Part shown: piece by piece, positions 2,410-36,116 of the stretch
Layout: every line of letters starts with the position of its first letter
How positions within the stretch are numbered: the first letter of the stretch is position 1
Assembly: GCA_021806355.1 (NCBI GenBank)
Contig: JAJZXT010000050.1
Span: 1-36,169 of the forward strand
DNA from: Thermoplasmata archaeon
GTDB lineage: Archaea > Thermoplasmatota > Thermoplasmata > Thermoplasmatales > Thermoplasmataceae
Direction of reading: 5' to 3'
DNA length: 36,169 nucleotides
Made by a program: the position numbers and the translations under genes
Notes under the pieces: model-generated
Database searches by the model: none
What the model was told of the DNA's origin: nothing
The model's input: only the letters and a program-made list of their open reading frames with translations

Positions 2410-2420
2410 AAGAAATATGA

Positions 2421-8299: not shown

Positions 8300-8317
8300 T
8301 AAAGAGGTGAAAAAAAG

Positions 8318-9295: not shown

Positions 9296-9555
9296 TGGGA
9301 AAGATCTCTGATGCCGTTCTGGCCCTGATCATACTGATCATAGGCCTGTATGTCCTCACCAAGCTGGGCCTCACTGCAGGGGCCATATGGTCCATGCTCA
9401 AGCAGTTCTTCTCCTCCCCAACGCCCGGAAATACAACATCAGGTGCAATTCTGGGAATAACTACAAATGCGAAAATGAAGGAAAAGATCAGGGAGAAAAG
9501 GGAATGGTTCATCCACATGATCAGGTCAAGGCAGCTGAAGGGGATCAAGCGATGA
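9295..9555 (+). CDS. small membrane protein
   Basis: 86 aa with an N-terminal hydrophobic helix (VLALIILIIGLYVLTKLGL) and a TGATG overlap upstream. Confidence 0.5.
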   Translation: MGKISDAVLALIILIIGLYVLTKLGLTAGAIWSMLKQFFSSPTPGNTTSGAILGITTNAKMKEKIREKREWFIHMIRSRQLKGIKR

Positions 9556-10972: not shown

Positions 10973-11298
10973 CAAGATCTACAGTTAAAGATTGGAAAGT
11001 GGAAAGCATATTCCGGGACATGAAGCTGAAAGGCATAGAGTTAGACGGGAACCTGTGGCTCAAAACAAAATTCAGGGACTTTCAGGAGAAGGAGGATGAT
11101 GGTATGAGATCTATGCCACTTTCTCCGGATACTGCCGTTGAGGAGACACGTATCCCCGGATTTTATGAATTGTCAATGGATGAATCATACGAAGGCCCTT
11201 CATGCTCAATGCTTGAAAAGATTGTCAGGAGATCCACTCCGGAAGCTGAATCAAATTCTGCTGAAAAAGAAGAGGTGAATCAGGATGCCAATAGATGA
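10969..11298 (+). CDS. hypothetical protein
   Basis: 109 aa with an ATGA overlap upstream. Confidence 0.5.
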   Translation: MTRSTVKDWKVESIFRDMKLKGIELDGNLWLKTKFRDFQEKEDDGMRSMPLSPDTAVEETRIPGFYELSMDESYEGPSCSMLEKIVRRSTPEAESNSAEKEEVNQDANR

Positions 11299-11647
11299 GG
11301 CCACGCCTGAAGGGCTTAGGCTCCTTTATGATCTTCTTGTTAAAGCAAGTGAATTTCCCGGAGACACAGTACATAACCCGAGAAACCTCTACATCTGGGG
11401 TGAAAAACTGAAAGCTCTGCACCATCTCATTTCATCGTATCATGATGATAAATACCTGCAGGAATACAGACTGGCACAGAAGCACATTCAGGAAATTTCA
11501 AAACTCTACCCTTCAGATAGTTACATATCAGGAGGTTTTGAGGCACTCTATGAGTGGCTGGGATCATTATCAAGACTGTATTCAAGGTTAGGCCTAATGA
11601 TACCTGAAAACCTGACTTACACGGAGGGAGGTGAGGATGGCATATGA
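11285..11647 (+). CDS. hypothetical protein
   Basis: 120 aa. It overlaps the upstream gene by 14 nt and the downstream gene by ATGA. Confidence 0.5.
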   Translation: MPIDEATPEGLRLLYDLLVKASEFPGDTVHNPRNLYIWGEKLKALHHLISSYHDDKYLQEYRLAQKHIQEISKLYPSDSYISGGFEALYEWLGSLSRLYSRLGLMIPENLTYTEGGEDGI

Positions 11648-12828
11648 GCGGGGATACTGAAAACATTTCAGAATCAATGAAAAACAGTGTTTGGTTAATG
11701 CAATGGATAAGGAATAGAATCAAGAAGAACAGGAATATTATTGCACTTTTCATTGGAGATACTGGCTCCGGAAAATCAATGGCTTCAATAAGGTTGGCAG
11801 AGAGAGTGGATCCAAACTTCACAGTTGACAGGATAGTGTTTACCGTCAAAGAATTCCTGTCTCTTGTCAACGGAGGGCTTCCTCCAGGTTCTGTCATAAT
11901 ATTTGACGATGCAGGGCTTGGCATCAATGCAAGATTATGGCAGGAAACAAGTGCAAGAGTGTTTGGGATGTTGACTCAGGGGTTCAGGTACAAACAGATA
12001 CTCACATTTATTACTGTTCCTGATGAGACATTCATTGAAAGGCAGTCAAGGAAACTTGTGCATATCAGGTTCGAATCAACTGATGTTCAGGGCCTCATGA
12101 AAATAAAACTGATCTCAAGGAATACCTGGGATCCTGAGCATCCACTGGCCAAATTTCCCAGAATTCACCGGGGAATTTCTGAAATAGTGATCAAAATGGC
12201 AAAATTCCAGTTGCCCAGCAAGGAACTCAGGGAGGCTTATGAAACCAAAAAAAAGGAATATATGGAGTCAAGATTCAAAGAATTTCAGGAGCAGCTCAAC
12301 ATCATGGATGGCGGAAAGCTCCTGCTAAAAAATGGAAATCCGGCAGTGAATATCCAGTGTGATGAGTGCGGCTATGAATGGGACTATACGGGATACAGAA
12401 AAATAGCTCAATGCCCAAGCTGCAATCACAGAATATATATTGCGGACATGGAGGAAAATAGAAATTCTGGCATACAGGTAAAATGCAGGCATTGCAGCTA
12501 TGCGTGGACTTATACAGGGGAAGGAAAACGAACCGTCTGCCCGAACTGCGAACAGCATGTGAATGTTGTCAAGGATGTTGTGGAAGGAGAGAAGGCTGAT
12601 CCATTTGATCCCCTGAACACACCATACAGTCCAGGAATGACTAAGGAGGAACTGTTTGATCTTATGATGGAAAAATTGATTAGAAAAGGGGAGAAGATAA
12701 CGCCTGAAATGAAAAACTTGTGTGAGTATCTGGCTGAGAAGGCAATAAAGCATCAGGAGGAGAAGCGTAAGAATGCATTGGAAGGGAAAAAAGAAGGTAA
12801 GGAGGATGCGGATGATCATAAGAAATAG
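11644..12828 (+). CDS. P-loop NTPase with two C-terminal zinc ribbons (virus/plasmid-type ATPase)
   Basis: Walker A is GDTGSGKS and Walker B is VIIFDDAG. Two CxxC...CxxC ribbons are present (CDECGYEW...CPSCNH and CRHCSYAW...CPNCEQH). Confidence 0.75.
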   Translation: MSGDTENISESMKNSVWLMQWIRNRIKKNRNIIALFIGDTGSGKSMASIRLAERVDPNFTVDRIVFTVKEFLSLVNGGLPPGSVIIFDDAGLGINARLWQETSARVFGMLTQGFRYKQILTFITVPDETFIERQSRKLVHIRFESTDVQGLMKIKLISRNTWDPEHPLAKFPRIHRGISEIVIKMAKFQLPSKELREAYETKKKEYMESRFKEFQEQLNIMDGGKLLLKNGNPAVNIQCDECGYEWDYTGYRKIAQCPSCNHRIYIADMEENRNSGIQVKCRHCSYAWTYTGEGKRTVCPNCEQHVNVVKDVVEGEKADPFDPLNTPYSPGMTKEELFDLMMEKLIRKGEKITPEMKNLCEYLAEKAIKHQEEKRKNALEGKKEGKEDADDHKK

Positions 12829-12834
12829 AAGTAG

Positions 12835-12918
12835 TGGCATGTCAGGTGGCATGTGCCACTCACATGCCAGTGATACAGAACCTGCAACTTCCTGTAAAAA
12901 TAATAGAAAATGGCATGT
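12835..12918. repeat. TGGCATGT motif: three direct copies, one inverted copy, and a 9-bp stem hairpin
   Basis: Direct copies are at 12835-12842, 12847-12854 and 12911-12918, with an inverted copy at 12862-12869. The hairpin is tggcatgtg (12847-12855) / cacatgcca (12861-12869) with a 5-nt loop. It lies immediately downstream of the ATPase stop at 12826-12828. Confidence 0.7.
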
Positions 12919-13075
12919 TGTGATGTTGAACTTCTATTATTATATATACATGAATCAAAAGGCAATCTTTGATCGAATTTTTGGTTGCTTTAAATACTGT
13001 AGACTCACCCGGAGTTTGAAAATATGAATAATCTTGTTAAAAATGAAATAAAGAAGAACGCAGAGGAATGAAAAA

Positions 13076-14077
13076 ATGACACAGAAATGGATAACAAAAG
13101 GAAAAGGAGACGAGAAGAGGAGATTTGCAATTGAGACTGACAGGAAGCAAAGAGAAGTACAGATCAGTACCATAGGGCCATCTGTTAGTGATCTGGAGAA
13201 GGAAGCGTGGGGGATGCTGGGAGATCTCTCCAAAATAACCAGTGTTGATGATCTTCTATTGCAATTAAAAAAGTACTCAGGTACCCTGGGAGACTATTCC
13301 TCGTTCAATTCACTTCTTATAACATTCCAGTTTGAGACTCCTACCATAGTCAGATCCAAGGCTGAATGGGGTTATTTCGGAAGAACAGTTAATGAGGATG
13401 CAACCAGAATTAATGTGCTGTATCCAATAGGAATTCCCAAGAAAGACGGGCCGGGCAAAGTCAAAGAATTCATTGAAAAAAAGAGAAAGGAAGGTCTCAG
13501 CGATGAGGCCATAGATGAACTCTTAAGGGAAAAATTCAATGCTGAAGGTGGAGGATTAACCCATATCTTCAGTGTTGGATCTGTTTATGACATATCCCAA
13601 ACCACTGTGATCCCGGGAAAAGGTAAACCGATGGAGGATAATGCAAAGGCAGAATCCCTCTACAATACCCTTAAGAAGATAGCAAAGCAGCATTATACCG
13701 TCGAGGAAGATACCATAGTAACTGGGGCCAGAGGATATACTGCCCACTCAAACGAAGGCCAGAAGATAGTTGTTATGAAGATACCGGGTGAAGACACAAA
13801 TGTGCTCCATACATTGATTCATGAGATGTCTCACGCCAGACTGGAGCATCTTTACAGAAAAGATCTTCCGAGAGGAATTGCAGAGGTTGAAGCTGAGCTC
13901 TCCTCATACCTGGTAGGCTCGCATTTTGGATTAGATTTCCGTGGGGATTCTTCTATATATATCAAGAATTGGCTCGATAATGCAAGGAGCGAAGGAAAAG
14001 TGCTTGGAAAGGAGAACCTGGACAGGGTGATGAACAATGCAAGATGGCTCATTCAGGAGATATCCCAGAGGCTGTAA
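13076..14077 (+). CDS. ArdC-like protein: ssDNA-binding N-domain plus HExxH metalloprotease (putative anti-restriction)
   Basis: YSSFNSLLITFQ...AEWGYFGRTV...INVLYP resembles the ArdC N-terminal domain. LIHEMSHARLEH is a zincin HExxH motif. Confidence 0.55.
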   Translation: MTQKWITKGKGDEKRRFAIETDRKQREVQISTIGPSVSDLEKEAWGMLGDLSKITSVDDLLLQLKKYSGTLGDYSSFNSLLITFQFETPTIVRSKAEWGYFGRTVNEDATRINVLYPIGIPKKDGPGKVKEFIEKKRKEGLSDEAIDELLREKFNAEGGGLTHIFSVGSVYDISQTTVIPGKGKPMEDNAKAESLYNTLKKIAKQHYTVEEDTIVTGARGYTAHSNEGQKIVVMKIPGEDTNVLHTLIHEMSHARLEHLYRKDLPRGIAEVEAELSSYLVGSHFGLDFRGDSSIYIKNWLDNARSEGKVLGKENLDRVMNNARWLIQEISQRL

Positions 14078-16370: not shown

Positions 16371-17003
16371 ATGCCTTTGCCCGTTCCAAGGAACATGATG
16401 ATCCAATCTGGCCAGAAATTGTCCATCGAATTTTTTTCGGATGAAGATCTCGGGAAGATCTTCCATGAGATCTCGTGCAAAATGGAAAAGGACCCATCAA
16501 GAATCGAATACCACCAGAGATATTTTCTCCTAGCTAAATTTCTCCTTCGAACAGGAGGAAGAATAGATGAAGTGCTGCAGCTGAGACCATCAGATATCAA
16601 CCTGTCCACAAACACAGTCCGTCTGATAACGCTGAAACAGGGAAAGGACAAACGCACGGGGCTTCCCATGGAAAAATACAGGATCATCCCGATGCATCCC
16701 GATCTAAGAGATATCTATATGCAGTATCTCCTCACCACAAATATAAGGCAGGATTCCCCTGATCTTTTGTTTCCCATGAAGAGGCAAGTTGTGGATCTTT
16801 ACTTGAAGAAGATCCAGAACAGTATAGGTATTGGTGTTCACGCTCACAAGTTCAGGCATACATTCGCGGTCAAGGCCATAATGGATAATGTTCCCCTGAA
16901 TGTGCTGCAGCAGTGGATGGGCCATTCATCAGTGTTCACAACCTCAATTTATACTCAAATCACTGGCATGGATACCTCAGAGTTTATGGAAAAAATGCGA
17001 TGA
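16371..17003 (+). CDS. tyrosine recombinase, catalytic domain only (N-terminally truncated or minimal)
   Basis: Catalytic motifs are RTGGRIDEVLQLRPSDI (Arg I), HAHKFRHTFA (HxxR) and GHSSVFTTSIYTQ (His/Tyr). Only about 40 aa precede Arg I. An in-frame TAA lies at 16347-16349. A TATATAAA box sits at 16343-16350. Confidence 0.75.
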   Translation: MPLPVPRNMMIQSGQKLSIEFFSDEDLGKIFHEISCKMEKDPSRIEYHQRYFLLAKFLLRTGGRIDEVLQLRPSDINLSTNTVRLITLKQGKDKRTGLPMEKYRIIPMHPDLRDIYMQYLLTTNIRQDSPDLLFPMKRQVVDLYLKKIQNSIGIGVHAHKFRHTFAVKAIMDNVPLNVLQQWMGHSSVFTTSIYTQITGMDTSEFMEKMR

Positions 17004-22979: not shown

Positions 22980-25718
22980 TCACTTCATGGAATTCATCAA
23001 TAGTTCTCTTATTCTTTTATGAGGCTCCCCCAGAAGCTCTTCAACAACCTCCAAGTTGTCATAAAATGACACAAATAACTCTTGTTCTTCTATTGGGGGT
23101 ATATCGATTCTTGCCTTATCAAAAAAGTCCGTCATATTCCATGTGCCGTTGTCAGAACTTGAAGAGTATTCAAGAAAGAGATTGCGATACTCGTAAAATA
23201 ACCATTTGAGATTGATCTTGTAATCTACACGTTCACTCTGAGTGACTTCGGAAGACTTCTTGAGAAACAACAGATATGCGTCGTCGTTTATTGTATAATC
23301 TCCTGTTTCAAAGAATGTAGTAAATCCTGCTTTTCCCTTCCTAACTACGTGAATAACTTGTTTTCCCTCTGTCACCGTAATGTATTTCGACGCATCCTTA
23401 GGATGAGGACACTTATGAATATACATAGTTTCATCAAAAACGGTACTTCCGGTTAAAATTAGATACTTTCGTTCTTTGTTAATCTTTATCTGAGAATACC
23501 GATATTCCTCTGTTAAACCAGAATTTCCACTCATGTACCCTAGAACTTCTCCAATGGGGACCTCCAAGCCTTGAAATGCTGAGAAATCCCTATTAGTAAT
23601 CATCACCTTAATTCTTTCTAACTGAGTATGTAACTGGGAGAAATCAACGTTTGAGATCGATTTCATTTGTTTCTCAACTGTATCGAGTTTATTCTTCCAT
23701 TGGTTCATCGGCATAAGTCCTGCTTCAGCAGGGCGCATGTAATACTCTGGAAGAAGACAATAGTTTGCTGCCGGCTCTTGAATGGTTGACATCTTAATGA
23801 ATCCACCTTTTCTGAGTTTTATTCCCTTTCCCTTTTCATCAATCCACTCAGTTCCAGAAGTTAAACTATCATCGAATTTCTTCCATCTTTCCTCAAGGAG
23901 TCCTGGCATTTCTTCTCCATCAGTGCTTACCCATCCTGAAATTTCGTCGTGCATCCAACCATTTCGATTATTCCGTAACTTTGTGGGAAACCTTTTGTCA
24001 GAATTGGCTAGGCCATCATTGTCTAAAATATACATCCAAATTGGTTCGGTTTGCATTCTTGTTTGGTTATCTGCCTTTTTCTTGAAGAACACCGCATACA
24101 TTTTTTCCTTAGTGTAGGGTGCAAATGCAAATTTAGGAAGGGAGATAATTGCTTCTATAGCGCATTTTTCAAGAAAATTACTTCTTAGCTTAACAAAAGA
24201 TGGATTCTCCAACACACCATCAGGGAGTAGGACGCATGCCTTGCCATTCACTTTCAAAAGGTTGATGATTCTATAGAGGAATGCAATCTCGTTGCGAAAG
24301 GATGCTATGGCCGTTGTATCGGCTTTTACAGTCCCAGCGCCTACAGGTGGATTAGTGAGGATATAATCCCATTTTTCATCGTCCTTGAACTTGTGTCTAA
24401 GAGAATCTCTTGAATACATATGTGTATGGCCGTCTCCAACAAGAAACATGTTCAATTTTGTCCGCCAAATGTTTTCCGGCCTAACGTCGAAGCCATAAAA
24501 GCAGCTTTCTTCTAGGAATCTAAGTGCTTCCTCATCCAAGGATAAATTCTTGCTGTAAGCATTGTACAACACTTTGAAACTTTCTGTCAAAAATCCTCCT
24601 GTTCCACACGCTGGGTCTAGAACTTTAAATTCCCTCTTACCGTCATAATATGTCTCATCTTTTAGTAACAGTTTTGCGAAAATATGCGTATAGTGTCTTC
24701 TAGTGAAATACTCACCGAAGTCCTTTTTCTCATTCTTGCTTGCAAACTTTTCATACACAGCCCCGAACAGATCAAACCCACAACCATGTAAAGGTTTCAT
24801 GGAATCGATAATATCGTATATGCTCTTCACATCCTCAGTTGTCACTATAGGCTTTGTCTTTTCTGTTCCCACTATGGCGATTCTGACTTTCTCCATTAGG
24901 GTAGAAAATTCCTCAAATTGGGAATTCTGCTCTAATCTCTGAATGTATTTGGACAAAGATGCCACAACTTCTTCTGATTTCTTGGATTGACAATCAGTCC
25001 AATATATTCTTGTAGCATCTTTGGTACCCCTCAAATTTTCTCTTTCTTCAAAATACTCCAAAGATATGAAACCTATTGTAAAGTCGATCTTTTGAACGCC
25101 ATTTTCGAAACTAATGTTTCTATAGACCTTAGCAAGTTCCCAAAGCCTATTAGCAAAAACCGCCTCAGATATAAGTGCTAGAGAATCAACATTTGTAACT
25201 ATATTCTCAAGCTCTGGTTTTTGGGTGAGTTGATTTTTTACTAGACGGAGCACGTCTATAGTTTGGAAGGTGCGAATTGGGTTTCCGTTTAGCCTAATCT
25301 CATTCCTAGTCTTTACATTGTAAAAAATACTTGTCTTGCAATTGGTTACTATAAAGAATGGTAATTTGAGTTTTGGTGCTTTGTCAAATCCTTGTTTGAT
25401 TGCATCCTTCCAATCAGCATCACCTACAACGCTTTCATCCTTTGCTTCTGCATATGCGACAAGATTCTCTATGAACTGGGTTTCATTCTTTGTGATCTGA
25501 TCATACTCAAATTCAGATACGAGTAAATCAGGCCTCTTGAGGAACGTGTATTTCGAAAAAGTAGTATCGTTCACGATTTGTCTAAGAGGTATACTCAACT
25601 GACTGACCAGAACCTCATTAATGAATCTTTGAACAGTTAGAGCCTCCTCTTTCTTCTTTTTTCGTTTTGGTTCAAATTCTGGCTGCTCAATAAGCCTTTT
25701 CTGAATGGCCAATTCCAT
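22980..25718 (-). CDS. Type IIG-like fused restriction-modification enzyme (N-terminal HsdR_N-type nuclease, gamma-class N6-adenine MTase, C-terminal target-recognition region)
   Basis: The N-terminus has RPDLLV...LVAYAEAKDES...FFIVTNCK (D...ExK). MTase motifs are GEYFTRRHYTHIFAKLL and VLDPACGTGGFL (motif I) and ILTNPPVGAG (motif IV variant). The C-terminal 300 aa are HsdS-like (LEVPIGEVLGYMSGNSGLTE). No helicase motifs are present. Confidence 0.7.
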   Translation of the reverse strand: MELAIQKRLIEQPEFEPKRKKKKEEALTVQRFINEVLVSQLSIPLRQIVNDTTFSKYTFLKRPDLLVSEFEYDQITKNETQFIENLVAYAEAKDESVVGDADWKDAIKQGFDKAPKLKLPFFIVTNCKTSIFYNVKTRNEIRLNGNPIRTFQTIDVLRLVKNQLTQKPELENIVTNVDSLALISEAVFANRLWELAKVYRNISFENGVQKIDFTIGFISLEYFEERENLRGTKDATRIYWTDCQSKKSEEVVASLSKYIQRLEQNSQFEEFSTLMEKVRIAIVGTEKTKPIVTTEDVKSIYDIIDSMKPLHGCGFDLFGAVYEKFASKNEKKDFGEYFTRRHYTHIFAKLLLKDETYYDGKREFKVLDPACGTGGFLTESFKVLYNAYSKNLSLDEEALRFLEESCFYGFDVRPENIWRTKLNMFLVGDGHTHMYSRDSLRHKFKDDEKWDYILTNPPVGAGTVKADTTAIASFRNEIAFLYRIINLLKVNGKACVLLPDGVLENPSFVKLRSNFLEKCAIEAIISLPKFAFAPYTKEKMYAVFFKKKADNQTRMQTEPIWMYILDNDGLANSDKRFPTKLRNNRNGWMHDEISGWVSTDGEEMPGLLEERWKKFDDSLTSGTEWIDEKGKGIKLRKGGFIKMSTIQEPAANYCLLPEYYMRPAEAGLMPMNQWKNKLDTVEKQMKSISNVDFSQLHTQLERIKVMITNRDFSAFQGLEVPIGEVLGYMSGNSGLTEEYRYSQIKINKERKYLILTGSTVFDETMYIHKCPHPKDASKYITVTEGKQVIHVVRKGKAGFTTFFETGDYTINDDAYLLFLKKSSEVTQSERVDYKINLKWLFYEYRNLFLEYSSSSDNGTWNMTDFFDKARIDIPPIEEQELFVSFYDNLEVVEELLGEPHKRIRELLMNSMK

Positions 25719-25924
25719 TATTCCTCCTTGACCTTTTCTAATTCACCCCTTATTACTCTAACAATCAATACTTCTCTTTTCTCGGGGTCAAAATCCCATG
25801 TAAGCATATCATTAGTGGTTAGGTGGAGCGTCTTCACAATAAATGAAGGTACTGTAGTTCTTATTGAGTCGCTCTGTGTTTTTGCCGCTACCAATTTTGT
25901 CGTCTCACCTTTCATTCTTGGCAT
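25718..25924 (-). CDS. AbrB/SpoVT-family DNA-binding protein (possible controller of the R-M gene)
   Basis: 68 aa with IRTTVPSFIVKTLHLTTNDMLTWDFD, typical of the swapped-hairpin domain. Its stop overlaps the R-M start by 1 nt. Confidence 0.6.
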   Translation of the reverse strand: MPRMKGETTKLVAAKTQSDSIRTTVPSFIVKTLHLTTNDMLTWDFDPEKREVLIVRVIRGELEKVKEE

Positions 25925-26056
25925 TCTACCTACATATCGATAACTTGCTTATAAATCTACCTATTTGCATGTCGATTATTATCTCTATTCCATAATATAG
26001 GTAGACATATCAACATATTTATAAGGCAGAAAGTAATAGGTGTATTAAGAGGTAGA
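25924..26056. repeat. TCTACCT(A/C)T motif: two direct and two inverted copies in the divergent intergenic region
   Basis: Copies are at 25924-25930 (+), 25955-25961 (+), 25998-26004 (-) and 26050-26056 (-), with a fifth at 27309-27315 (+). Confidence 0.7.
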
Positions 26057-27317
26057 TAACCAATGAGCATTGATGAAGGGAGAGAGCAAAGAGGCGAAGA
26101 AATCGCCAAGTCTGGAAAACTGAAACAGGAAGGCAATCACTGGATAGTGCCTTCTCAGAGTGGGCATGGGAATTACATTGTTAGCATGAAGGGGAAAGAA
26201 CCGATCTGCACATGCCCTGATTTTGAAAGCAGAAATGTAAGGTGCAAACACATCATAGCGGTTGAACTTACAATAGCGCATAATAAGAATCCAACGGAAA
26301 CACCAGCCATAGAAGGCGTTAAGAAGGTAACATATTCACAGGCATGGTCTGCCTATAATGCAGCACAGAGCGAGGAAGTAAAGCTGTTTGATGCACTTCT
26401 CAGCGACCTAGTATCAGGGGTTGAAGAACCAGAACAGACAAGAGGAAGGCCCAGACTGCCCTTGAAGGATGAACTTTTCTGCGCAATACAGAAAGTGTAT
26501 TCACAGCTTTCAAGCAGGAGATCGGCATCACTTTTTGGATTTGCGGAATCCAGAGATCACATATCACATGCCCCGCATTTCAATGTTTCTTCGAAAGTGC
26601 TGAACAGAGAAGACATAACGCTAATATTACAGAATCTTCTTTCCCAGACCGCATCGCCACTCATGGAGATCGAAACAAAATTTGCAACCGACAGTTCAGG
26701 CTTCAGGACTACCAACTTTAATGAGTACGCTGAAGAGAAATACAACTTAAAAAGGGAGCATGGATGGATCAAGGCGCATATCACCGTCGGGGTTAGAACA
26801 AACATAATCACCGCTCTCAATGTTACAGAGAACAAAGGTAAAGGTTCGGCGGACATTAACCACTTCAAGCCCCTCATTCTAAGGACAAAAGAGCTTGGGT
26901 TTACTGTTGAAGAGGCATCGGCGGACAAGGCGTATCTTTCAAGGTCAAATCTGGCATTGATTGATGAAATGGGTGGCGTTCCATACATACCATTCAAGAG
27001 CAATACTCATGGCAGGCCGATGGGAAATCATATCTGGAGAAAGATGTATGCAATCTTCCTTTACCGCAAGGAAGAATTTGAGGAGCATTACCACCTTCGA
27101 TCCAACGTGGAGACGACATTCTCTGCCTGGAAACTGAAACTTGGAGATTCCTTGAAAAGCAAGAACCTGACTGCACAGAAGAATGAGCTTATCTGTAAAG
27201 CAATTGCTTACAACATAACCGTGCTGATACATGAAATGTTTGAGTTGGGCATTAAGCCGGACTTCATCCCTGAACCCCTAGCTATCTTCCTATAAGTTGG
27301 AGTGGAAATCTACCTCT
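26048..27317 (+). mobile_element. putative IS element (boundaries tentative)
   Basis: A 10-bp inverted repeat agaggtagat (26048-26057) / atctacctct (27308-27317) brackets the transposase gene. No clear target-site duplication is visible. Confidence 0.3.
26063..27295 (+). CDS. transposase with N-terminal SWIM zinc finger and DDE (IS4/IS5-like) catalytic domain
   Basis: The SWIM finger is CTCPDFESRNVRCKH (CxC..CxH). The DDE-like signatures are ATDSSGF, ASADKAY and RSNVETTFSAWKLK. GC is higher than in the flanks. Confidence 0.8.
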   Translation: MSIDEGREQRGEEIAKSGKLKQEGNHWIVPSQSGHGNYIVSMKGKEPICTCPDFESRNVRCKHIIAVELTIAHNKNPTETPAIEGVKKVTYSQAWSAYNAAQSEEVKLFDALLSDLVSGVEEPEQTRGRPRLPLKDELFCAIQKVYSQLSSRRSASLFGFAESRDHISHAPHFNVSSKVLNREDITLILQNLLSQTASPLMEIETKFATDSSGFRTTNFNEYAEEKYNLKREHGWIKAHITVGVRTNIITALNVTENKGKGSADINHFKPLILRTKELGFTVEEASADKAYLSRSNLALIDEMGGVPYIPFKSNTHGRPMGNHIWRKMYAIFLYRKEEFEEHYHLRSNVETTFSAWKLKLGDSLKSKNLTAQKNELICKAIAYNITVLIHEMFELGIKPDFIPEPLAIFL

Positions 27318-27806: not shown

Positions 27807-27879
27807 CTGCACCTAAAATATTTTACTTGCACCTAAATTCAATCAAAAAGAGGCTTTTAAGTGCAAAGCCTAGCAAAAT
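27807..27879. repeat. TTGCACYTAAA motif locus B (two direct copies 20 nt apart plus one inverted copy)
   Basis: The elements are ctgcacctaaaa (27807-27818), ttgcacctaaa (27827-27837), cttttaagtgcaaagc (27854-27869, the exact reverse complement of 22395-22410) and tagcaaaat (27871-27879). Confidence 0.8.
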
Positions 27880-27912: not shown

Positions 27913-29166
27913 CTATATGGAACTCATCATTTTATTCTTGAAAACCCAAGTATTATGATACCCTCTTCTCTTATTCCTATTTGTGCCCCGAAAGATCATG
28001 ACATCAATACCATGTTCCTGACAAATTTCACATTCGCAATTTTCCCAAGGTTTATGTTCCAGAGTTTTCCTGTACTTTACTTTAATATTTTCTATATTTT
28101 CAGAATTCCTCATTAATAGTTTGTCATATTCAATTACAGAGGAAAGGGCAGTATCAATGCCAAGTTTTCCGTCAGAGTATCTTAATAAAGAATCATAGGC
28201 CTGCGTTTCCAAATTTTCTAAATCCTGAAGAGAAATATTTGAATCATTTGCATTTTTTATTAGATTTTTATTCCATGAGAATGGAACCCTTATGGCAGAG
28301 TACCAAACACCTTCCTGGGATAGATAATTCTGCCCGGATCTTAACCATGCTTTTCTGAAATATGATGCACTATCAAAACTGGTGACTCCCAATTTTTCGA
28401 AGTTTGTAATGTGTCCTGGACGCATAACACCAAAAAGATGCAGCTTTTTGCCTTCCATGTATGGTGTAACTTTATGAAGAATCTTTAACAATTCAAGGTT
28501 ACTATATTGAACTAAACCACCGAGGGCCAAATATTCATAACCTTGGGAGACCAATGAAATAACACTCTCAATATAGGACTTTGGGCTGTAACCTTGGGCA
28601 ACTCCGATTGCCTTAAAAGAATAATGTTTCTCCTTTACTAAATTTATGAATTCCTCGGAGTTCTGCACAGTCAGCATTCTTCTTCTTTCTCTTTCTTTGG
28701 TTGATAATTTTACATATTTCTTCTTTCCTTCCTCTTTAAAACGGATAAATCCCACAGCAATGTGATCCGGGCTTACTCCAAAATCAAATTTAAATTCATG
28801 GTACATCTCTGCAACGTGATGTACAGAATAAAATGGTGGTGGATTGTGATGGGCAACATAACTGAATGCACCACAGTCACCCATTACCTTCAATCTTGAG
28901 TATTTCTGGATTTTCAAATAATCCCGGATATTTTTTTTATTTCTAATCATGGGCTGGTTTTGTTCATCATATTTTATTTTCAGTTTAGTCTGAAAGTTGC
29001 TTAAGCTAAAGAGTATACCATCATATGGTTGCTTTTTCTTGTATATCTGATGTGCATAATAATCGTTTTCATAAGGACTTATTTCATGAGATTCTGAATA
29101 AGAATCATTTGTGAAATCAAATTCAGGATCTACCCGATCTTCCCAGTTTGGCATATAGAACTTCAT
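27913..29166 (-). CDS. TGT-family (queuine/archaeosine tRNA-ribosyltransferase fold) protein, DpdA-like candidate DNA transglycosylase
   Basis: GDCGAFS corresponds to the DSGGFQ catalytic Asp region, and YEYLALGGL to the GGLxxGE region. LHLFGVMRPGHI...GVTSFDSASYFRKAWLRSG corresponds to HLLGVGxP...GVDxFDxxxPTRxAR. CECEICQEHG...GYHNTW is the CxCxxC...H zinc site. The protein is 417 aa with no C-terminal extension. Confidence 0.8.
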   Translation of the reverse strand: MKFYMPNWEDRVDPEFDFTNDSYSESHEISPYENDYYAHQIYKKKQPYDGILFSLSNFQTKLKIKYDEQNQPMIRNKKNIRDYLKIQKYSRLKVMGDCGAFSYVAHHNPPPFYSVHHVAEMYHEFKFDFGVSPDHIAVGFIRFKEEGKKKYVKLSTKERERRRMLTVQNSEEFINLVKEKHYSFKAIGVAQGYSPKSYIESVISLVSQGYEYLALGGLVQYSNLELLKILHKVTPYMEGKKLHLFGVMRPGHITNFEKLGVTSFDSASYFRKAWLRSGQNYLSQEGVWYSAIRVPFSWNKNLIKNANDSNISLQDLENLETQAYDSLLRYSDGKLGIDTALSSVIEYDKLLMRNSENIENIKVKYRKTLEHKPWENCECEICQEHGIDVMIFRGTNRNKRRGYHNTWVFKNKMMSSI

Positions 29167-29224
29167 TATTATTAGATAAGTGAGCTGAAAATATAATAAA
29201 ATCTTTTTGGTGTTGATTTTGTTG

Positions 29225-29692
29225 TCAGGAAGTGACAGAAGCCAACCACATTTTTAAATTGTGCAACCTCACCCCAATGGTTCCATATCCATATTTAATA
29301 TTCAGCTCTTTGAATAGGGGATTGTCAAAACCTATCGCATTTCTGTACGTTTTTCCAAGTTCTATGTATATTTCACTGTATGTTGAAGATTGTAGAATAC
29401 TTACTAATCTGTCTGTTGTTTGATTCTTCATCTCTTGGGCAATGTGATCATTCATTTTTTGTTCATAAACTGAAATTTTATGATTGGCAAAAATTAATCC
29501 GTATTTTGCAGATAAAATGAGAATATCAATCTTATCTGTAGGATACTTTCTAATGATTCTGTAACTCGGGCCATCATATACCTGCAAGGCTGGCTGATCC
29601 TTAAGATCACGTTTTGTGGCAGAACATGAAATCAGCAATAATTTCCTTGGAGTTATCTTTTCAGATACACTTTCAATTTGAGCCTGCAACAT
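29225..29692 (-). CDS. small uncharacterised protein of the TGT-helicase operon (possibly DUF6884/YaaA-like)
   Basis: 155 aa with the segments LLLISCSATKR, ALQVYDGPSYR and ILILSAKYGLI. The family assignment is from memory only. It is 6 nt from the nuclease gene and 58 nt from the TGT-like gene. Confidence 0.5.
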   Translation of the reverse strand: MLQAQIESVSEKITPRKLLLISCSATKRDLKDQPALQVYDGPSYRIIRKYPTDKIDILILSAKYGLIFANHKISVYEQKMNDHIAQEMKNQTTDRLVSILQSSTYSEIYIELGKTYRNAIGFDNPLFKELNIKYGYGTIGVRLHNLKMWLASVTS

Positions 29693-29698
29693 GATGAA

Positions 29699-30634
29699 TC
29701 ACTTACTGCCGGGTATTCTGTGATGATATTTATTTCGTTCCTTAGGACAACTGGTTCTGAGATCACACGCATCGCAAGTTTCTCTTCCGGCCGTTTCAGC
29801 GCCATTTGATGGGGGTGGCCAGTTGTTCGTGTCCTTTGAAGTTTCAATTTGACTGACAGTGTTATCGAAACTTTGTAATGCCTTATTCATTTCTGCATCG
29901 TCCAGCGGGACTTCTAGTACAGCTGAGGATGGTCGAGAAGTAATAGTCTGTCCCCGCAGTTCTCCAAGGAAATAAATCACCCCTTTTGACGGATAGTATC
30001 CATTTCTCATTTTAAAAAGAGAGGAATATACCAGCATTTGAAATTTGTAATCTTCTAGTATCTTCTTTCCAAAACCAGTAGTCTCTATTGGACGTTTGGT
30101 GCCTTTGTAATCCCAAATTTCGACATCCCTGCTATCGGATCCTGTCGGAGATACTAATACGTCAACAACCCCATGAAGTATATACCTGCCTCTATCGCTC
30201 TGCAATTTGTGTTCAGTATCTTTTACACGAGGGTACAGATCTTTCCCTTCAATTCGATTGAATCTTTGCAAAAGCTTGAGTACATATTCCCCTAGTTCTG
30301 GATTAAAAGGCCTTATTCCATGAGCACGCAGGGCACTGTCAACCTCGTTAAAATAAATCCTAATTTGATCATCGTTAGGTATTTGATTGGCTGTTGCGTT
30401 ACTTATCCTTCCAGAATATTGTAGGTGCGCTCTGTCCAGTACTTGATGTATCATTGAACCCACGTATCTCTGTGATGGCTGAGCAGGAGCAAAACTCCTT
30501 ATCGATTGACTTGCATATAATCTTGGGCATCTTCTGTATGATAGCACATCTGCAGTCACACTGTATTTCCTCTTTAAATCATTCGTTGTAATTTGTCTCA
30601 CGTTTAAATCTTTATATCTATCAAATGAGTCCAT
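29699..30634 (-). CDS. Cas4/RecB-family PD-(D/E)XK nuclease with predicted 4Fe-4S cluster
   Basis: Motifs are RRCPRLY (N-terminal Cys), GSMIHQ, GVVDVLV...VEIWDYKGTK (D...DxK), QMLVYSSLF (QxxxY) and the C-terminal CDACDLRTSC (three Cys). Confidence 0.75.
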   Translation of the reverse strand: MDSFDRYKDLNVRQITTNDLKRKYSVTADVLSYRRCPRLYASQSIRSFAPAQPSQRYVGSMIHQVLDRAHLQYSGRISNATANQIPNDDQIRIYFNEVDSALRAHGIRPFNPELGEYVLKLLQRFNRIEGKDLYPRVKDTEHKLQSDRGRYILHGVVDVLVSPTGSDSRDVEIWDYKGTKRPIETTGFGKKILEDYKFQMLVYSSLFKMRNGYYPSKGVIYFLGELRGQTITSRPSSAVLEVPLDDAEMNKALQSFDNTVSQIETSKDTNNWPPPSNGAETAGRETCDACDLRTSCPKERNKYHHRIPGSK

Positions 30635-30643
30635 ACAATCCCC

Positions 30644-32890
30644 CTAAATTTCAATTGTGTTTCCAAAAACAGTCCAATTGCTGTCTCCACCGAATCCCAC
30701 TCCTGGTCTCGTATACTCCGTTCTTTTTGCCAATAAAATGAGAGCGTATTGTGCTCTGGAATAGGCAACAAAGAACCGCCTAACAAGATCCTGTTTAACT
30801 TTTTGTTCTGTCGTAAATCTTGTTGATGAATTATTCGAATTTCTGGAGAACTTGGCAAAATCGCTTTCCATTTGGACAGATGCCATATCAACTATGGCTG
30901 AAGATAAACCATAGACAAAAACTAAAGGAAATTCCAAGCCTTTTGATTGATGAATGGTCATAATCGGAACTCTTCCTCGTGGGAAATTCTCTATCTCATC
31001 CTCAGCCTCATTGAGACCTTCTGAAGCCAAGAGTCCCAATAAAGAGTAGTAAAAATTTTTCCTCCAAGTGAAACTTATTCCTTGGTTGACATTACTGCTG
31101 GTATACAAAAATCCCAACATATTCTTTGTGTTTTTGGAGTTTGGTACATTCGAATACGCATCAAGCACATTGCACACGACCCCTATTCTCGTAGATCTTT
31201 CGGGATCATCAATCCAATCTGAAAGGGGTGGAAAATTCAGCAGATCGTAAAAAATTTCCAGAAGATTCACTCCGACAGATGTACTTGGGCCCATTCTCAA
31301 TATGGAATTTGCATAACTTGTCACATAATCTCTAAGATCTTTATTATTAGCTGCAACCCTATCAAATTCCCCTCTCCATTCGTCACATATTTCTCTGATT
31401 GCAGGAAATTTTACGGCTCTTTGAGCAGTTGAAGAGGGGTCAATAATTTTAAGCAGACCCCCAAGAATAACTTTGATCTCCTCCTGTTCAAGCAACCCTT
31501 TTGATCTTGGGTTGTAATACGGGATGTTGTGATTTTCCAAAGCGTCCATGAATGGACCAGCTTTATATTTACTTCTCTTAGTACTGTGAAGGAGAAGAAC
31601 ACATTCTGAATAATCATGTATCAACTGTTTGTCAAGCAGATATTCCAACATGTTTGCGAAGAATTCGGCGACCTCATCTGCATTTTTTCCTCTATGAATA
31701 GCTACTGGTGGGTAAGATCCGTTAATGGCAGAACCTGCAGTTAAGGGAGGTTTTCCCCGAACTCTTGCCCCCGGGAGGCTCATTTCTTGGAAAGATCTCA
31801 TATATCCATCATAAAAAGTTATAATTCCGGGATTGGATCTATAGTTTGTAGATAAGAATACACTAGTTATCTCTGGTATTTTCCATTTTTGTTGGCATGA
31901 ATTTTCAAAATTCACCATGCAATCAACGGTACCTCCCCTAAATCTGTAAAGAGCCTGATCATCATCACCTACAACACATAGATTCTTGCTATTCTCTGCA
32001 AGCTTGAAATATATTTCTTCCTGTATTTGGTTTGTGTCTTGATACTCATCAACAAGAACATGCTTGACGCCAGGATACTGATCTGTTCCGTCGCCATACA
32101 GAAAGAGACTTGATTGCTGGCTTTTCAAAAAATCTAGGAATTTAAGTTGGACATGAGCAAAATCGCATCTGTAGTTGTCAAACAATTTATTTCTATATTC
32201 TTCATATGCTTTAACTAAAGTTTCCCAAGACCCTCCCTCTGCATACATTGCATTGGTATCCAATCGGTCTTCTACAATTCTGTTAAAAAGTTTAGAAAGT
32301 CCTTTGGTTTTAATATTTCTGTTTGGTGGTCTGCCGGAGTTTGGATTCCATATACTTGTGGTCAATGGATCGAAAATAGCAAAAACATACGGAAACCCTG
32401 GCCATAAATCATCATAGTTTTGAGACACAGTACTATCTAAACTGGTTGAAGAGGAATGTTCAATTATAAACAATCTCTGTTCGATGTCATCCAGTAATCT
32501 ATAATTTTGATAACCTGTGAATCTAAACTCTTGCATTCTATCATTACACAGACCATGCAGGGTATCAACCCTTATCCTGTTGTATACAATAGTCTCTAAT
32601 GACTTGTCTATAGCAATTAAATACTGCATATATTGGGAAATTCTGGTCTGTAGATTGTTAGCTGCTTTTTCTGTAAAGGTAGTTAATATGATGCTCGCAG
32701 GTGAAACCTTATCAACCACAAGCAATTTCAAACATCGGAATACAATGGAATCGGTTTTACCAGAACCTGGACCTGCGATAACCCATAATGGGCCATCTCC
32801 ATGACTAATGACAATTTTTTGGTTATTGTCCAATCGAAATCCTCTTCCTGGAATGGCCTCAATAGCATTAATAAAGTCGTCAAGATTCAT
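30644..32890 (-). CDS. UvrD/Rep-family SF1 DNA helicase
   Basis: All seven motifs are present: AGPGSGKT (I), TFTEKAANNL (Ia), VLVDEYQDTN (II), VVGDDDQALYRFRGG (III), STNYRSNPG (IV), TIHQSKGLEFPLVF (V) and FVAYSRAQYAL (VI). Confidence 0.9.
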   Translation of the reverse strand: MNLDDFINAIEAIPGRGFRLDNNQKIVISHGDGPLWVIAGPGSGKTDSIVFRCLKLLVVDKVSPASIILTTFTEKAANNLQTRISQYMQYLIAIDKSLETIVYNRIRVDTLHGLCNDRMQEFRFTGYQNYRLLDDIEQRLFIIEHSSSTSLDSTVSQNYDDLWPGFPYVFAIFDPLTTSIWNPNSGRPPNRNIKTKGLSKLFNRIVEDRLDTNAMYAEGGSWETLVKAYEEYRNKLFDNYRCDFAHVQLKFLDFLKSQQSSLFLYGDGTDQYPGVKHVLVDEYQDTNQIQEEIYFKLAENSKNLCVVGDDDQALYRFRGGTVDCMVNFENSCQQKWKIPEITSVFLSTNYRSNPGIITFYDGYMRSFQEMSLPGARVRGKPPLTAGSAINGSYPPVAIHRGKNADEVAEFFANMLEYLLDKQLIHDYSECVLLLHSTKRSKYKAGPFMDALENHNIPYYNPRSKGLLEQEEIKVILGGLLKIIDPSSTAQRAVKFPAIREICDEWRGEFDRVAANNKDLRDYVTSYANSILRMGPSTSVGVNLLEIFYDLLNFPPLSDWIDDPERSTRIGVVCNVLDAYSNVPNSKNTKNMLGFLYTSSNVNQGISFTWRKNFYYSLLGLLASEGLNEAEDEIENFPRGRVPIMTIHQSKGLEFPLVFVYGLSSAIVDMASVQMESDFAKFSRNSNNSSTRFTTEQKVKQDLVRRFFVAYSRAQYALILLAKRTEYTRPGVGFGGDSNWTVFGNTIEI

Positions 32891-32893
32891 TTT

Positions 32894-33415
32894 TCACCTC
32901 TTTATTTTTCCTTCCAATATCCTTATTTCTTTGTATGCTTCCTCTCCTTTCTCGCTTAATACAAAATAGTTCTCAGGAGGATATGACTCGTTGTCAACCT
33001 CTGACCTCACGAGTTTCATTTCTTCAAGCTCCTTGATATCGTCATAGGATCCTGGGATCTCTTCTTTAATTTGGCCCACAGTTAATTTCCCCCTATCTCC
33101 CAGTAGCATTATGATGAGCTGTTGCCTTGAGAAAAAAGACTTCTTAAAAGTCCCCTTCGCTGCGAGTTCTGCATTCAGGAGCTGTTCTGCTACCTGATGG
33201 CCCTTGTCTGTTAAGAAAATATCATAAGTTCTTCTTCCCTTTATTGTCTCTTCTATTGTCAAATATCCCAGTACTGATAACTTATCTATAGATTTTGACC
33301 AAGTAGTCCAGCTATCTTCTTTAGTTATAATATCAGATTTCTTGCCCTTTCCCCCTTTATTTAATAATCTAATTAAAATTGTATTGGCATAAGGAATGTC
33401 AAGAGCATCTCCCAT
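32894..33415 (-). CDS. tandem winged-helix (MarR/TrmB-like) DNA-binding protein, first gene of the operon
   Basis: There are two wHTH-like units (ILIRLLNKGG...LGYLTIEE...YDIFLTDKGHQVAEQL and IIMLLGDRGKLTVGQI...MKLVRSE...YFVLSEKGEEAYKEI). The stop is 3 nt before the helicase start. Confidence 0.6.
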   Translation of the reverse strand: MGDALDIPYANTILIRLLNKGGKGKKSDIITKEDSWTTWSKSIDKLSVLGYLTIEETIKGRRTYDIFLTDKGHQVAEQLLNAELAAKGTFKKSFFSRQQLIIMLLGDRGKLTVGQIKEEIPGSYDDIKELEEMKLVRSEVDNESYPPENYFVLSEKGEEAYKEIRILEGKIKR

Positions 33416-33530
33416 ATTAAAGATAATAGTTAGTTGCTAATTAGATTATACAATTTGTTCAATATACTATATTATAGATTGAATAAACCTTATATACAAT
33501 CTAACGTTTAGTAGAAAGTAGATGATTGAA

Positions 33531-33698
33531 ATGTCGTCAAGAAAATTGATAGTTGTTGATGAAGGAGTGTGGGAAAATCTAACAAAAATTAAGTTTAGGT
33601 TTTCGGTTGAAGAGAATAAAACTGTATCTTACTCTTCAACAATTTTGAGACTCATTGATGAACATGAGAAGGCCCACAATGTGGAGGCCCCTGCATGA
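33531..33698 (+). CDS. small RHH/CopG-like protein (below the ORF-track size cut-off)
   Basis: 55 aa, MSSRKLIVVDEGVWENLTKIKFRFSVEENKTVSYSSTILRLIDEHEKAHNVEAPA. It has an ATGA overlap with 33695..33982 and is divergent from the wHTH gene. Confidence 0.4.
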   Translation: MSSRKLIVVDEGVWENLTKIKFRFSVEENKTVSYSSTILRLIDEHEKAHNVEAPA

Positions 33699-34704: not shown

Positions 34705-35117
34705 TCCAGGAGTTCTCCATTGATGAGGAGACTATGAAATATCTCGAGTTCCTCAATATGAAGTATAGGGAAGTGGTACATTTCCTTGGAGAGAAGGATG
34801 GTTCGCTTGACCTTGTAAAAGTCCAGTTGTTCTTTGAGAGAATTGTATCACATTTCGCACCTGATGTCACCAGTCTCAATGAAGTTAATATTGAAAAAAA
34901 GGTGGATGCCCGGGAAATGGCCCCAGACGAGAGGAAAAGCTTCCTTGATGCATTGGTCAGGAACAAAAAATACAGCCTCCAGAAGATGGGGGACGGGTAC
35001 ATCGTGAGGGCTAATCTGGCCGATGATAGGATGAAAGAACTCGTGGAGAAGATGGGACAGGCAGGATTCAAATACGAGACTGGAAAGGGATTTGTGGAGG
35101 TTGGAATAGATGAATAA
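34701..35117 (+). CDS. hypothetical protein
   Basis: 138 aa with an ATGA overlap upstream. It overlaps the integrase start by 8 nt. Confidence 0.55.
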   Translation: MIQEFSIDEETMKYLEFLNMKYREVVHFLGEKDGSLDLVKVQLFFERIVSHFAPDVTSLNEVNIEKKVDAREMAPDERKSFLDALVRNKKYSLQKMGDGYIVRANLADDRMKELVEKMGQAGFKYETGKGFVEVGIDE

Positions 35118-36081
35118 GGATCAGTTGGAAACATACATATCGGAGTTCCAGGAATGGGCCCTTTTCGAAGGGACATATTCCATGAGCACCATTAAGAGGG
35201 ATTCCAGAAAGATAAGAGAACTTTCAGGGAAATTTGATATCATGAACCCCACAATTGAGAATGTAAGGAATTATTTCCTGGACAAGCTCCATGAGGGAAA
35301 GATACAGAGATCCACATTGAATGTCACCAGGAAGGCCCTGATGAAGTGGTTCCGCTTCCTGAAGCAGAGGCATGGCTTTGCAGTTGAGATCAAGATCCCG
35401 AAGCAGCCTGAGAAAAGGAGGGCAATTTCATGGATACCAACCAACGAGGAGGTAAAGAGGATCATTCAGGCTGCTGACACACAATCCAACAGGGAAGTTG
35501 CAGCAAGGGATGGGGCAGTCATGAGGCTTCTGTTCTCCGGGGGCCTGAGGATAGGCGAGGTCGTGAAGCTGAATCTCCAGGACATGAGATCTTCCGGAAT
35601 ATTTGTGCATTCTGAAAAGGGAGGGGAAGATGGCGTCGTGGGCCTTTCTGATGACTGCATTACCAGCATCCAGAAATATCTCCTATACAGGAGAGGGACA
35701 GATCCTTCTGCACTCTTCACATCAGCAGCTGGAAGGGTATCGTATGAGTACCTGAGGCAGCACATATCCAATCTGGGCAAGCAGGTGGCCCCAAGCTGGC
35801 ACCCACATGCTGCAAGGCACTGGGTTGCTACCTTCCTGCTTGCAGGGGATCAGGAGAATGGAATCGAACCTCTGGATATACGTTATGTGCAAACCCAGCT
35901 ACGCCATGCGTCATTATCAAGCACTCAGATATACACCCATGTCAACAGGGATGACCTTGCAAACAGCGTGAATAAGAGGCTCAGCAAATTTTTTCGTGAG
36001 GAAAGAAATATGATAAAAATGATGAACCCGGATAAAATTGAGCGGGTCTGGAGGGGTTCGAACCCCCGGCCTATGGATTAA
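35110..36081 (+). CDS. int: tyrosine integrase (full length, XerC/D-like fold)
   Basis: Catalytic motifs are GGLRIGEVVKL (Arg I), HPHAARHWVAT (HxxR) and LRHASLSSTQIYTH (His, Tyr). An N-terminal core-binding region is present. The last 13 codons are encoded by tRNA-Lys sequence. Confidence 0.85.
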   Translation: MNKDQLETYISEFQEWALFEGTYSMSTIKRDSRKIRELSGKFDIMNPTIENVRNYFLDKLHEGKIQRSTLNVTRKALMKWFRFLKQRHGFAVEIKIPKQPEKRRAISWIPTNEEVKRIIQAADTQSNREVAARDGAVMRLLFSGGLRIGEVVKLNLQDMRSSGIFVHSEKGGEDGVVGLSDDCITSIQKYLLYRRGTDPSALFTSAAGRVSYEYLRQHISNLGKQVAPSWHPHAARHWVATFLLAGDQENGIEPLDIRYVQTQLRHASLSSTQIYTHVNRDDLANSVNKRLSKFFREERNMIKMMNPDKIERVWRGSNPRPMD

Positions 36082-36116
36082 GAGTCCATCGCTCTACCTG
36101 GCTAAGCTACAGACCC
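36043..36116 (-). tRNA. tRNA-Lys (anticodon CUU), CCA not encoded
   Basis: The hand-folded cloverleaf has acceptor GGGTCTG/CAGACCC, D stem GCTT/GAGC, anticodon stem ATGGA/TCCAT with loop CTCTTAA, T stem GGGGG/CCCTC and T loop TTCGAAC. Confidence 0.85.

Follow-up and report, generated by a model that had tools for sequence, protein, structure and literature searches.

An apparently undescribed, compact and DpdB-less relative of the Dpd system in archaea and in many bacteria

Five minus-strand genes of a Thermoplasmata archaeon (family Thermoplasmataceae) are considered here. They lie on contig JAJZXT010000050.1 of assembly GCA_021806355.1, which was analysed from position 1 to 36,169 of its forward strand; this whole stretch of 36,169 nucleotides is called the window. 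In the order of their reading direction, the genes encode a putative winged helix-turn-helix (wHTH) protein of 173 aa (32894..33415), a UvrD/Rep-type superfamily 1 (SF1) helicase of 748 aa (30644..32890), a PD-(D/E)XK nuclease of 311 aa with four cysteines placed as in Cas4 and AddB (29699..30634), a DUF6884 protein of 155 aa (29225..29692), and DpdA (27913..29166), a 417-aa protein with the fold of tRNA-guanine transglycosylases (TGTs). The intergenic gaps are 3, 9, 6 and 58 nt. An earlier note on this DNA, made without database searches, had delimited the same five open reading frames (ORFs) and proposed that they couple DNA modification to restriction in an undescribed archaeal system. The present analysis leads to a related view, in which the last four genes appear to form a compact module akin to the 7-deazaguanine system Dpd.

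What kind of enzyme is the 417-aa protein? In a profile search of NCBIfam it matches the DpdA equivalog NF041059 with 409 bits, twice the cut-off of 200, and it scores 386 bits against the DpdA model of PADLOC. It aligns end to end with the structure of Salmonella Montevideo DpdA (7UI4; E 3.6e-72), for which the roles of the catalytic residues have been identified (PMC10164549). The general acid/base Asp95 of 7UI4 corresponds to D97 of the window protein, the gate residue Phe99 to F101, the base-recognition residue Asp130 to D134, and the nucleophile Asp256 to D265, while the zinc site CxCxxC...H is formed by C377, C379, C382, and H404. An alignment of 12 relatives shows no variation at any of these residues; the catalytic aspartates and the zinc site, which the earlier note had taken to be intact, can thus be mapped onto a known structure. 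One position differs. The base-recognition residue His181 of 7UI4 is replaced by an invariant glutamine (Q191) in the DpdA clade of the window. TGTs that act on tRNA presumably carry glutamine at this position as well, and the change might point to a different substrate base or to a different geometry of recognition.

Could the protein be a housekeeping enzyme of tRNA modification, either an archaeal TGT (arcTGT) or a general TGT, that lies beside repair genes by chance? It does have the TGT fold (Pfam TGT, 39.8 bits), but it reaches only 24.4 bits with the arcTGT model TIGR00432 (cut-off 350) and 30.9 bits with the general TGT model TIGR00449 (cut-off 47.6), against 409 bits for DpdA. The alignment to 7UI4 leaves no room for the PUA and C-terminal domains of arcTGT, and the linkage to the neighbouring genes is conserved in other genomes. 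A housekeeping TGT is therefore extremely improbable. Judged by its sequence, the protein is a DpdA of the DNA-acting type with intact active sites, as had been supposed.

The 155-aa protein had been left without an assignment in the earlier note. It belongs to DUF6884 (PF21818, 50.2 bits; cut-off 30) and gives weak matches to YaaA and DpdC as well. According to the Pfam curators, DUF6884 is a distant relative of YaaA with the motifs CxxxK and LSAxxG (PMC11701544). In the window protein these motifs read CSATK and LSAKYG, and both are invariant. Among 34 module sequences with a mean column identity of 29%, the invariant residues are C23, K27, A35, Y39, S61, A62, Y76, and Y116. An AlphaFold model, built from an alignment of 23 database homologues, reached a pLDDT (predicted local distance difference test) value of 91.9. 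When the PDB was searched for similar folds, the sole meaningful match of this predicted structure was E. coli YaaA (5CAJ; probability 1.00, query TM (template modelling) score 0.64); a search of PDB sequences with the same protein returned nothing meaningful. YaaA has the DUF328 fold, which includes DpdC.

The relationship to DpdC is also visible in direct comparisons. The hhalign program aligns the protein with a DpdC candidate from a canonical dpd cluster at 75% probability (E 2.6e-5), and a genome-mining paper lists DUF6884 as a Pfam domain matched by DpdC. The motif (L/I)SAGxG aligns in three of four canonical DpdC candidates. CxxxK falls within the annotated protein in one of the four (locus L097); in the other three it is found only in an in-frame extension 5' of the annotated start, a placement which assumes that these starts were annotated too short. 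Both CxxxK and LSAxxG recur in the N-terminal domains of a group of 'long' DpdA proteins, to which we return below. Taken together, motifs and predicted fold indicate that the 155-aa protein is a minimal partner of DpdA with the DpdC/YaaA fold. A candidate defence system with a DUF6884-like gene is already present in PADLOC-DB (PDC-M57A). Its model matches the window protein weakly, with 41 bits, and no other scanned protein matched any of the listed PDC-M57 components.

The two remaining proteins of the module are a motor and a nuclease, as had been described. The helicase matches UvrD-helicase (PF00580) with 171 bits and UvrD_C (PF13361) with 83 bits, and its Walker A, DExQD, and other SF1 motifs are kept in 62 to 65 of 65 module homologues. 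Its scores for PcrA, UvrD, Rep, and AddA, at most 176 bits against equivalog cut-offs of at least 650, place it outside all four of these orthologous groups. The nuclease matches PDDEXK_1 (PF12705) with 59 bits. Its putative catalytic residues D158, D175-Y-K177, and Q199xxxY203, the last of these being the QxxxY motif, and the four cysteines C36, C287, C290, and C296 in a 1+3 arrangement are invariant in all 65 homologues. Cas4 was considered and rejected for this protein: TIGR00372 gives 25.6 bits where 65 are needed, there are no cas genes among the scanned ORFs of the window, and the Fe-S PD-(D/E)XK architecture is the only feature that the two have in common.

Are these four genes neighbours by accident, or do they travel together? 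Relatives were sought in one genome per GTDB species, with peptide patterns derived from the window's clade, and the best 80 of 167 were kept; a second set of 82 de-duplicated loci was analysed by unbiased clustering of ORFs. Both UvrD and the nuclease lie beside DpdA in 62 of the 80 genome loci, with a median span of 4.75 kb, and in all 10 of the archaeal ones. In the clustered set, the UvrD family accompanies DpdA in 66 of the 82 loci and the nuclease family in 63. This linkage survives changes in gene order. The order UvrD, nuclease, DUF6884, DpdA is found in the window and in its closest relative, L001; other Thermoplasmata and Methanoperedens have DUF6884, UvrD, nuclease, DpdA; and in L008, UvrD and nuclease precede a DpdA::DUF6884 fusion. 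When sampling was started from the nuclease, three of four homologues (43-47% identity) were found to lie within a full module.

In 51 of the 82 loci, DUF6884 and DpdA form a single fusion protein, with DUF6884 at the N-terminus of DpdA in 48 and at its C-terminus in 3; in about 20, DUF6884 has a separate adjacent gene. Fusions of the two occur among database matches as well. That fusions exist in either orientation argues strongly that DUF6884 and DpdA are physical partners. By contrast with these four families, the wHTH protein is not part of the conserved unit: no homologue stands beside the module in other loci, with the exception of a weak PadR-like match of 72 aa in one lineage. The ORF itself is sound, as had been stated; its two proposed wHTH regions rest on sub-threshold Pfam matches (PadR, HTH_34, and HTH_27), and it is probably a local regulator outside the module. 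A 130-aa ORF downstream of DpdA is likewise not conserved among relatives.

The module is not particularly archaeal, and the description of it as an archaeal system cannot be kept, because most examples are bacterial. Archaeal carriers are Thermoplasmata, whose metagenome-assembled genomes hold the nearest relatives of the window module, as well as Methanoperedens, Methanothermococcus, Methanobacterium, Methanoregula, and Pyrohabitans. The bacterial relatives that were kept belong to Planctomycetota, Chloroflexota, Acidobacteriota, Bacillota, Latescibacterota, Nitrospira, Bacteroidota, Poribacteria, Cyanobacteriota, and gammaproteobacterial symbionts. Viruses hardly figure in this list. The window's clade of DpdA is present on only one of 2.9 million IMG/VR contigs, at the edge of the contig and as part of a full module, and among phage records there was one weak match of 34% identity. 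In a neighbour-joining tree of 92 DpdA domains, which was midpoint-rooted and calculated without support values, three groups can be discerned: the canonical DpdAs linked to DpdB; the 'long' DpdAs, whose companions are STAND-like NTPases, DEAD helicases, and a truncated second paralogue of TGT; and a large clade including the window, nearly every member of which comes with DUF6884, UvrD, and nuclease. The phyletic spread is patchy, and partner lineages have been exchanged between DpdA lineages. From these comparisons of sequence, the module is best described as a widespread and horizontally mobile set of four components, reduced to three genes in most bacteria by the fusion of DUF6884 to DpdA.

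The module often has defence genes around it. Those near relatives include AAA_15/HNH and KwaA; GmrSD with an SLFN/AlbA protein and a Type III restriction-modification (R-M) system; GmrSD with HicAB and HEPN; and TIR proteins. In the window, the neighbours are Type III mod and res genes, a Type IIG-like gene, and AbiV. It might be asked whether the module serves DNA repair unrelated to defence, as a set of glycosylase-like enzyme, lesion binder, helicase, and nuclease. The types of component do resemble those of excision and end-processing repair, and one copy, in Methanoperedens, is flanked by housekeeping genes; but the patchy spread over archaea and many bacterial phyla, the swapping of partners between DpdA lineages, the copies in defence islands and mobile contexts, and the linked preQ0 genes described below make repair very unlikely.

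The motor and nuclease can themselves be replaced. In L024 (6907-11729) and L026 (6430-11729), the order of genes is NurA, HerA, DpdA, DUF6884, and NurA-HerA stands where UvrD and nuclease are otherwise found. A further seven loci (L056, L062, L072, and L085 among them) have a HerA/NurA-like pair in place of UvrD and nuclease or in addition to them. Such an exchange of motor-nuclease pairs is to be expected of an effector arm.

Which genes other than these accompany the module? The next commonest neighbour families are QueC, QueD (PTPS), QueE, and the YhhQ/VUT transporter, which serve the synthesis or transport of 7-cyano-7-deazaguanine (preQ0). QueC stands beside 15 loci, QueD beside 15, QueE beside 5, and YhhQ/VUT beside 13, and at least one such gene flanks 31 of the 80 loci. 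None is found within 10 kb of the 10 archaeal loci, and the window contains neither queC, queD, and queE, as had been noted, nor yhhQ. Archaea already make preQ0 for archaeosine, and the lack of flanking preQ0 genes in archaea is consistent with reliance on that pathway.

These neighbours bear on a second possibility raised in the earlier note, namely that the TGT-like enzyme is itself a base-excising effector. In such a scheme DpdA would excise guanines or form covalent or abasic intermediates on invader DNA, DUF6884 would read the lesion, and UvrD and nuclease would degrade the damaged DNA, with no marking of self. There are observations that lend it some weight. TGT chemistry proceeds through a covalent enzyme-nucleic acid intermediate (PMC10164549), and a DUF6884 protein of Bacillus subtilis, YfjM, has been reported among binders of abasic and RNA-base lesions and has been modelled with a flipped-out base in its pocket (PMC11701544). 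By contrast, genes for the synthesis or import of preQ0 recur beside the module, which speaks for a deazaguanine being inserted; conservation extends to the residues that bind the base and to the general base on which completion of the exchange depends; and no component is evident that would discriminate invader from self DNA. This scheme is now disfavoured and, in our view, distinctly unlikely. Like a role in repair, it is opposed by the linkage to preQ0 genes, the exchange of UvrD and nuclease for HerA-NurA, the scattered distribution, and the defence settings.

Equally telling is what the module lacks. Canonical DpdB, a ParB/DGQHR ATPase on which insertion depends in Dpd, gave no tblastn match in the window or in related loci, and an HMM (hidden Markov model) built from seven DpdB sequences reached at best 15.9 bits over the window and about 92 loci, where positive controls exceeded 520 bits. 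No ParB-like family is among the recurrent neighbour families. The absence of a ParB-like DpdB from the window, already remarked upon in the earlier note, thus extends to the relatives. Models for DpdD to DpdK matched none of the six scanned proteins (the five of the operon and the 130-aa ORF), which for UvrD holds among the best 25 of 49 families, and the other 28 ORFs of the window have no strong match to any Dpd model. In tblastn searches with DpdD, DpdG, and DpdK, nothing was found in the window or in the helicase-nuclease loci; matches were confined to the long-DpdA loci L053 and L081. A review from 2016 gives DpdB in 92% of dpdA genomes, which means that DpdB-less clusters were already known.

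Does the helicase then stand in for DpdB? Canonical bacterial DpdA needs the ATPase DpdB (PMC10164549), which is absent here, and UvrD is the sole ATPase of the module. It could be imagined that the helicase opens the DNA and the nuclease processes strands in aid of DpdA, so that there is no restriction arm and the module only marks the DNA of the cell or of a mobile element, for example as a shield from other restriction systems; the position of the window copy in an island bounded by an integrase and bearing an insertion sequence (IS) would suit such a function. Phage DpdAs, however, modify DNA without a helicase or nuclease (PMC10516641), and a base exchange that spares the backbone gives little reason for conserving an intact Fe-S nuclease. 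Replacement by HerA-NurA is typical of effector modules, and the clade is nearly absent from viruses. A module devoted to modification alone is therefore unlikely, if still to be taken seriously.

How might the module work? The reading that we prefer, with a confidence somewhat above even, is that it is a DpdB-independent variant of Dpd, in which DpdA and DUF6884 would mark the host DNA and the motor-nuclease pair would destroy DNA that is not marked. DpdA would swap guanine in host DNA for preQ0, drawn from the archaeosine pathway in the window archaeon and, in many bacteria, from the products of adjacent queC, queD, and queE genes or from a YhhQ importer. DUF6884, bound or fused to DpdA, would then process the inserted base. 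Its likeliest reaction would resemble that of DpdC, with the nitrile hydrated to an amide to give dADG (2'-deoxy-7-amido-7-deazaguanosine), possibly by way of the invariant Cys-Lys pair; alternatively, it may hold the flipped-out nucleotide for DpdA. The helicase-nuclease effector would load on DNA and degrade it unless it met a deazaguanine mark, with HerA-NurA replacing or joining UvrD and nuclease as the effector in some lineages.

Several observations weigh against this proposal of marking and restriction. In L093 (3835-7975), a UvrD of the module family (52% identity) and a Cas4-like nuclease (50%) form a pair, and there is no DpdA or DUF6884 from 7 kb before to 2.9 kb after it. This is awkward for a strict role in restriction unless the marker enzyme is encoded elsewhere in the genome. 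The dependence of canonical DpdA on DpdB and the Methanoperedens copy among housekeeping genes, both described above, also fit poorly. DUF6884 scores no more than 18 bits on DpdC models and is half the size of DpdC (about 300 aa), and the binding of lesions reported for YfjM hints at another role for the domain. The census, finally, is biased to the window's clade through its search patterns, and the tree that separates this clade lacks support values.

As a side observation, the gene immediately upstream of the L093 pair encodes a 313-aa protein with no Pfam match, which might be an alternative marking enzyme.

A more specific version of the preferred proposal can be put forward tentatively, although it is rather doubtful as it stands. 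Here the module would be a self-contained 7-deazaguanine R-M system of three to four genes, in which sparse marks act as stop or attenuation signals, similar to Chi, for a processive degradation machine of the AddAB or HerA-NurA kind, and not as a block to a site-specific endonuclease. Such a way of telling self from non-self would be new. In this version the mark might also be other than dADG or 2'-deoxy-7-cyano-7-deazaguanosine (dPreQ0), given the change of His181 to Gln and the cut-down DpdC-like enzyme.

The operon in the window lies on an island. Its presumed promoter region (33416..33694, minus strand) is AT-rich with TATA-like boxes and is bounded by a divergent ORF that begins on the plus strand at 33695. 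About 40 nt past the DpdA stop codon, a consensus scan found a terminator-like hairpin followed by a T-run (27851..27871, minus strand). In the window, such promoter and terminator scans yielded site numbers no better than those in shuffled sequence, and so these two assignments are weak evidence. The earlier note had placed the operon in an AT-rich island beside Type III and Type IIG R-M genes and an AbiV-like gene, which agrees with the profile matches and with a GC content of 0.36 over 14-34 kb as against 0.43-0.46 in the flanks. Downstream of DpdA, the 130-aa ORF, an IS element with DDE_Tnp_1 and SWIM domains (26063-27295), and the Type IIG-like methylase-nuclease of 912 aa with a 68-aa upstream ORF (22980-25924) separate the module from the Type III R-M pair. 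In L001, a Type III R-M pair is found about 0.8 kb downstream of DpdA, with a single 194-aa gene in between. It would appear from this comparison that a conserved defence island has recently received insertions at window positions 22980-27295.

At the right edge of the window, a tyrosine-recombinase gene (35110-36081, plus strand) overlaps with its 3' end the gene for tRNA-Lys(CTT) (36042-36116, minus strand). A second and shorter ORF of the integrase family lies at 16371-17003. No direct repeat of the 3' end of tRNA-Lys, such as would delimit the island on its other side, is present within the window. The first 14 kb (1-14000) have a GC content of 0.43 and encode mostly proteins without a family match. 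Their products include a protein with a PKD domain (5777-8299), a multi-zinc-ribbon protein whose match to ResIII is weak (11644-12828), and a candidate metallopeptidase of the PolyVal type with a weak, sub-threshold match (13076-14077). This region may be another mobile element or the remnant of a provirus.

A further architecture was encountered among the DpdA relatives. The long DpdAs mentioned above, found in L037, L053, L079, L081, L091, L092 (9158-17012), and L100, are proteins of 670-720 aa with a DpdC-like N-terminal domain. They are accompanied by the truncated TGT paralogue of about 300 aa and by either a P-loop NTPase that resembles STAND proteins and has about 1000 aa or DEAD-box helicases, sometimes together with DpdJ or an SNF2-PLD protein. 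No DpdB belongs to this architecture. Some copies are located on plasmids of cyanobacteria and Paenibacillus.

Why would a small relative of Dpd matter? To our knowledge, 7-deazaguanine marks on DNA are known from no cellular defence system other than Dpd, which with roughly 20 kb and 11 genes is hard to dissect. A module of three to four genes that does without DpdB would be a minimal version and is directly testable. If the proposal is true, deazaguanine modification of DNA extends to archaeal chromosomes and to many little-studied bacterial phyla, and the widespread DUF6884 domain gains a function. The HMM sets currently used for annotating defence systems would label only DpdA here; such loci have thus probably been missed or recorded as incomplete Dpd.

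How does the module compare with systems that are already known? At the level of HMMs, and over the operon proteins and the 130-aa ORF, the gene set has no match to a named system, which fits the earlier note's proposal of an undescribed one. The likeness to the Dpd system of S. Montevideo (dpdA-K) is nevertheless considerable. Both have a true DpdA with the same catalytic aspartates and zinc site, and the DUF6884 partner, a probable member of the DpdC superfamily, shares CxxxK and LSAxxG with DpdC candidates; both are frequently linked to queC, queD, queE, and yhhQ, and both show an island-like, horizontally mobile distribution. The differences are as clear. The module lacks DpdB and DpdD-K, which rules it out as canonical Dpd; its DpdC-like protein has half the length of DpdC and in most loci is joined to DpdA; and its DpdA belongs to a separate clade in which His181 is replaced by Gln. 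It occurs in archaea as well. The putative restriction arm consists of UvrD with an Fe-S PD-(D/E)XK nuclease, or of HerA-NurA, whereas that of Dpd comprises SNF2 and DEAD helicases and a PLD nuclease. The earlier statement that the partners differ from those of Dpd thus holds for DpdB and DpdD-K, but not for the 155-aa protein, which turns out to be DpdC-like and most often joined to DpdA.

The DpdA1-4 proteins of phages and other viruses show that DpdA can work without DpdB (PMC10516641). They are encoded in viral genomes alongside genes of the preQ0 or G+ pathways and protect viral DNA, whereas the clade of the module is cellular and usually carries a helicase-nuclease pair. This pair resembles AddAB and AdnAB in combining an SF1 motor of the UvrD type with a PD-(D/E)XK nuclease whose Fe-S cysteines are arranged 1+3 as in AddB and Cas4, and HerA-NurA can substitute for it. 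However, the helicase stays far below the equivalog cut-offs for AddA, RecB, PcrA, and UvrD, the nuclease is a stand-alone protein of 311 aa and not part of a large AddB-type subunit, and the pair is tied to DpdA loci. The scores and the missing partners rule out membership of AddAB.

Two further systems share single components with the module. Its helicase matches the GajB models of PADLOC with up to 118 bits, but Gabija combines GajB with the OLD-family protein GajA, in place of which the module has an Fe-S PD-(D/E)XK nuclease and a DNA-modification pair. The likeness to Gabija is limited to these GajB-like matches, and none of the six scanned proteins matched GajA. The BREX-related capture (BRC) systems (PMC12839542) likewise contain a TGT/DpdA homologue in a defence operon without DpdB or DpdC and with a HerA/FtsK motor nearby. 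They are defined by PglZ, a BrxC-like protein, STAND, DUF4007, and HerA, none of which is in the window, and they have TGT together with GNAT, whereas the module has a DpdC-like protein. In the open literature, we found no description of a module composed of DpdA, DUF6884, UvrD, and a PD-(D/E)XK nuclease, although the supplements of the founding papers (PNAS 2016 and Mol Microbiol 2018) may mention it. The module is apparently an undescribed relative of Dpd, compact and without DpdB.

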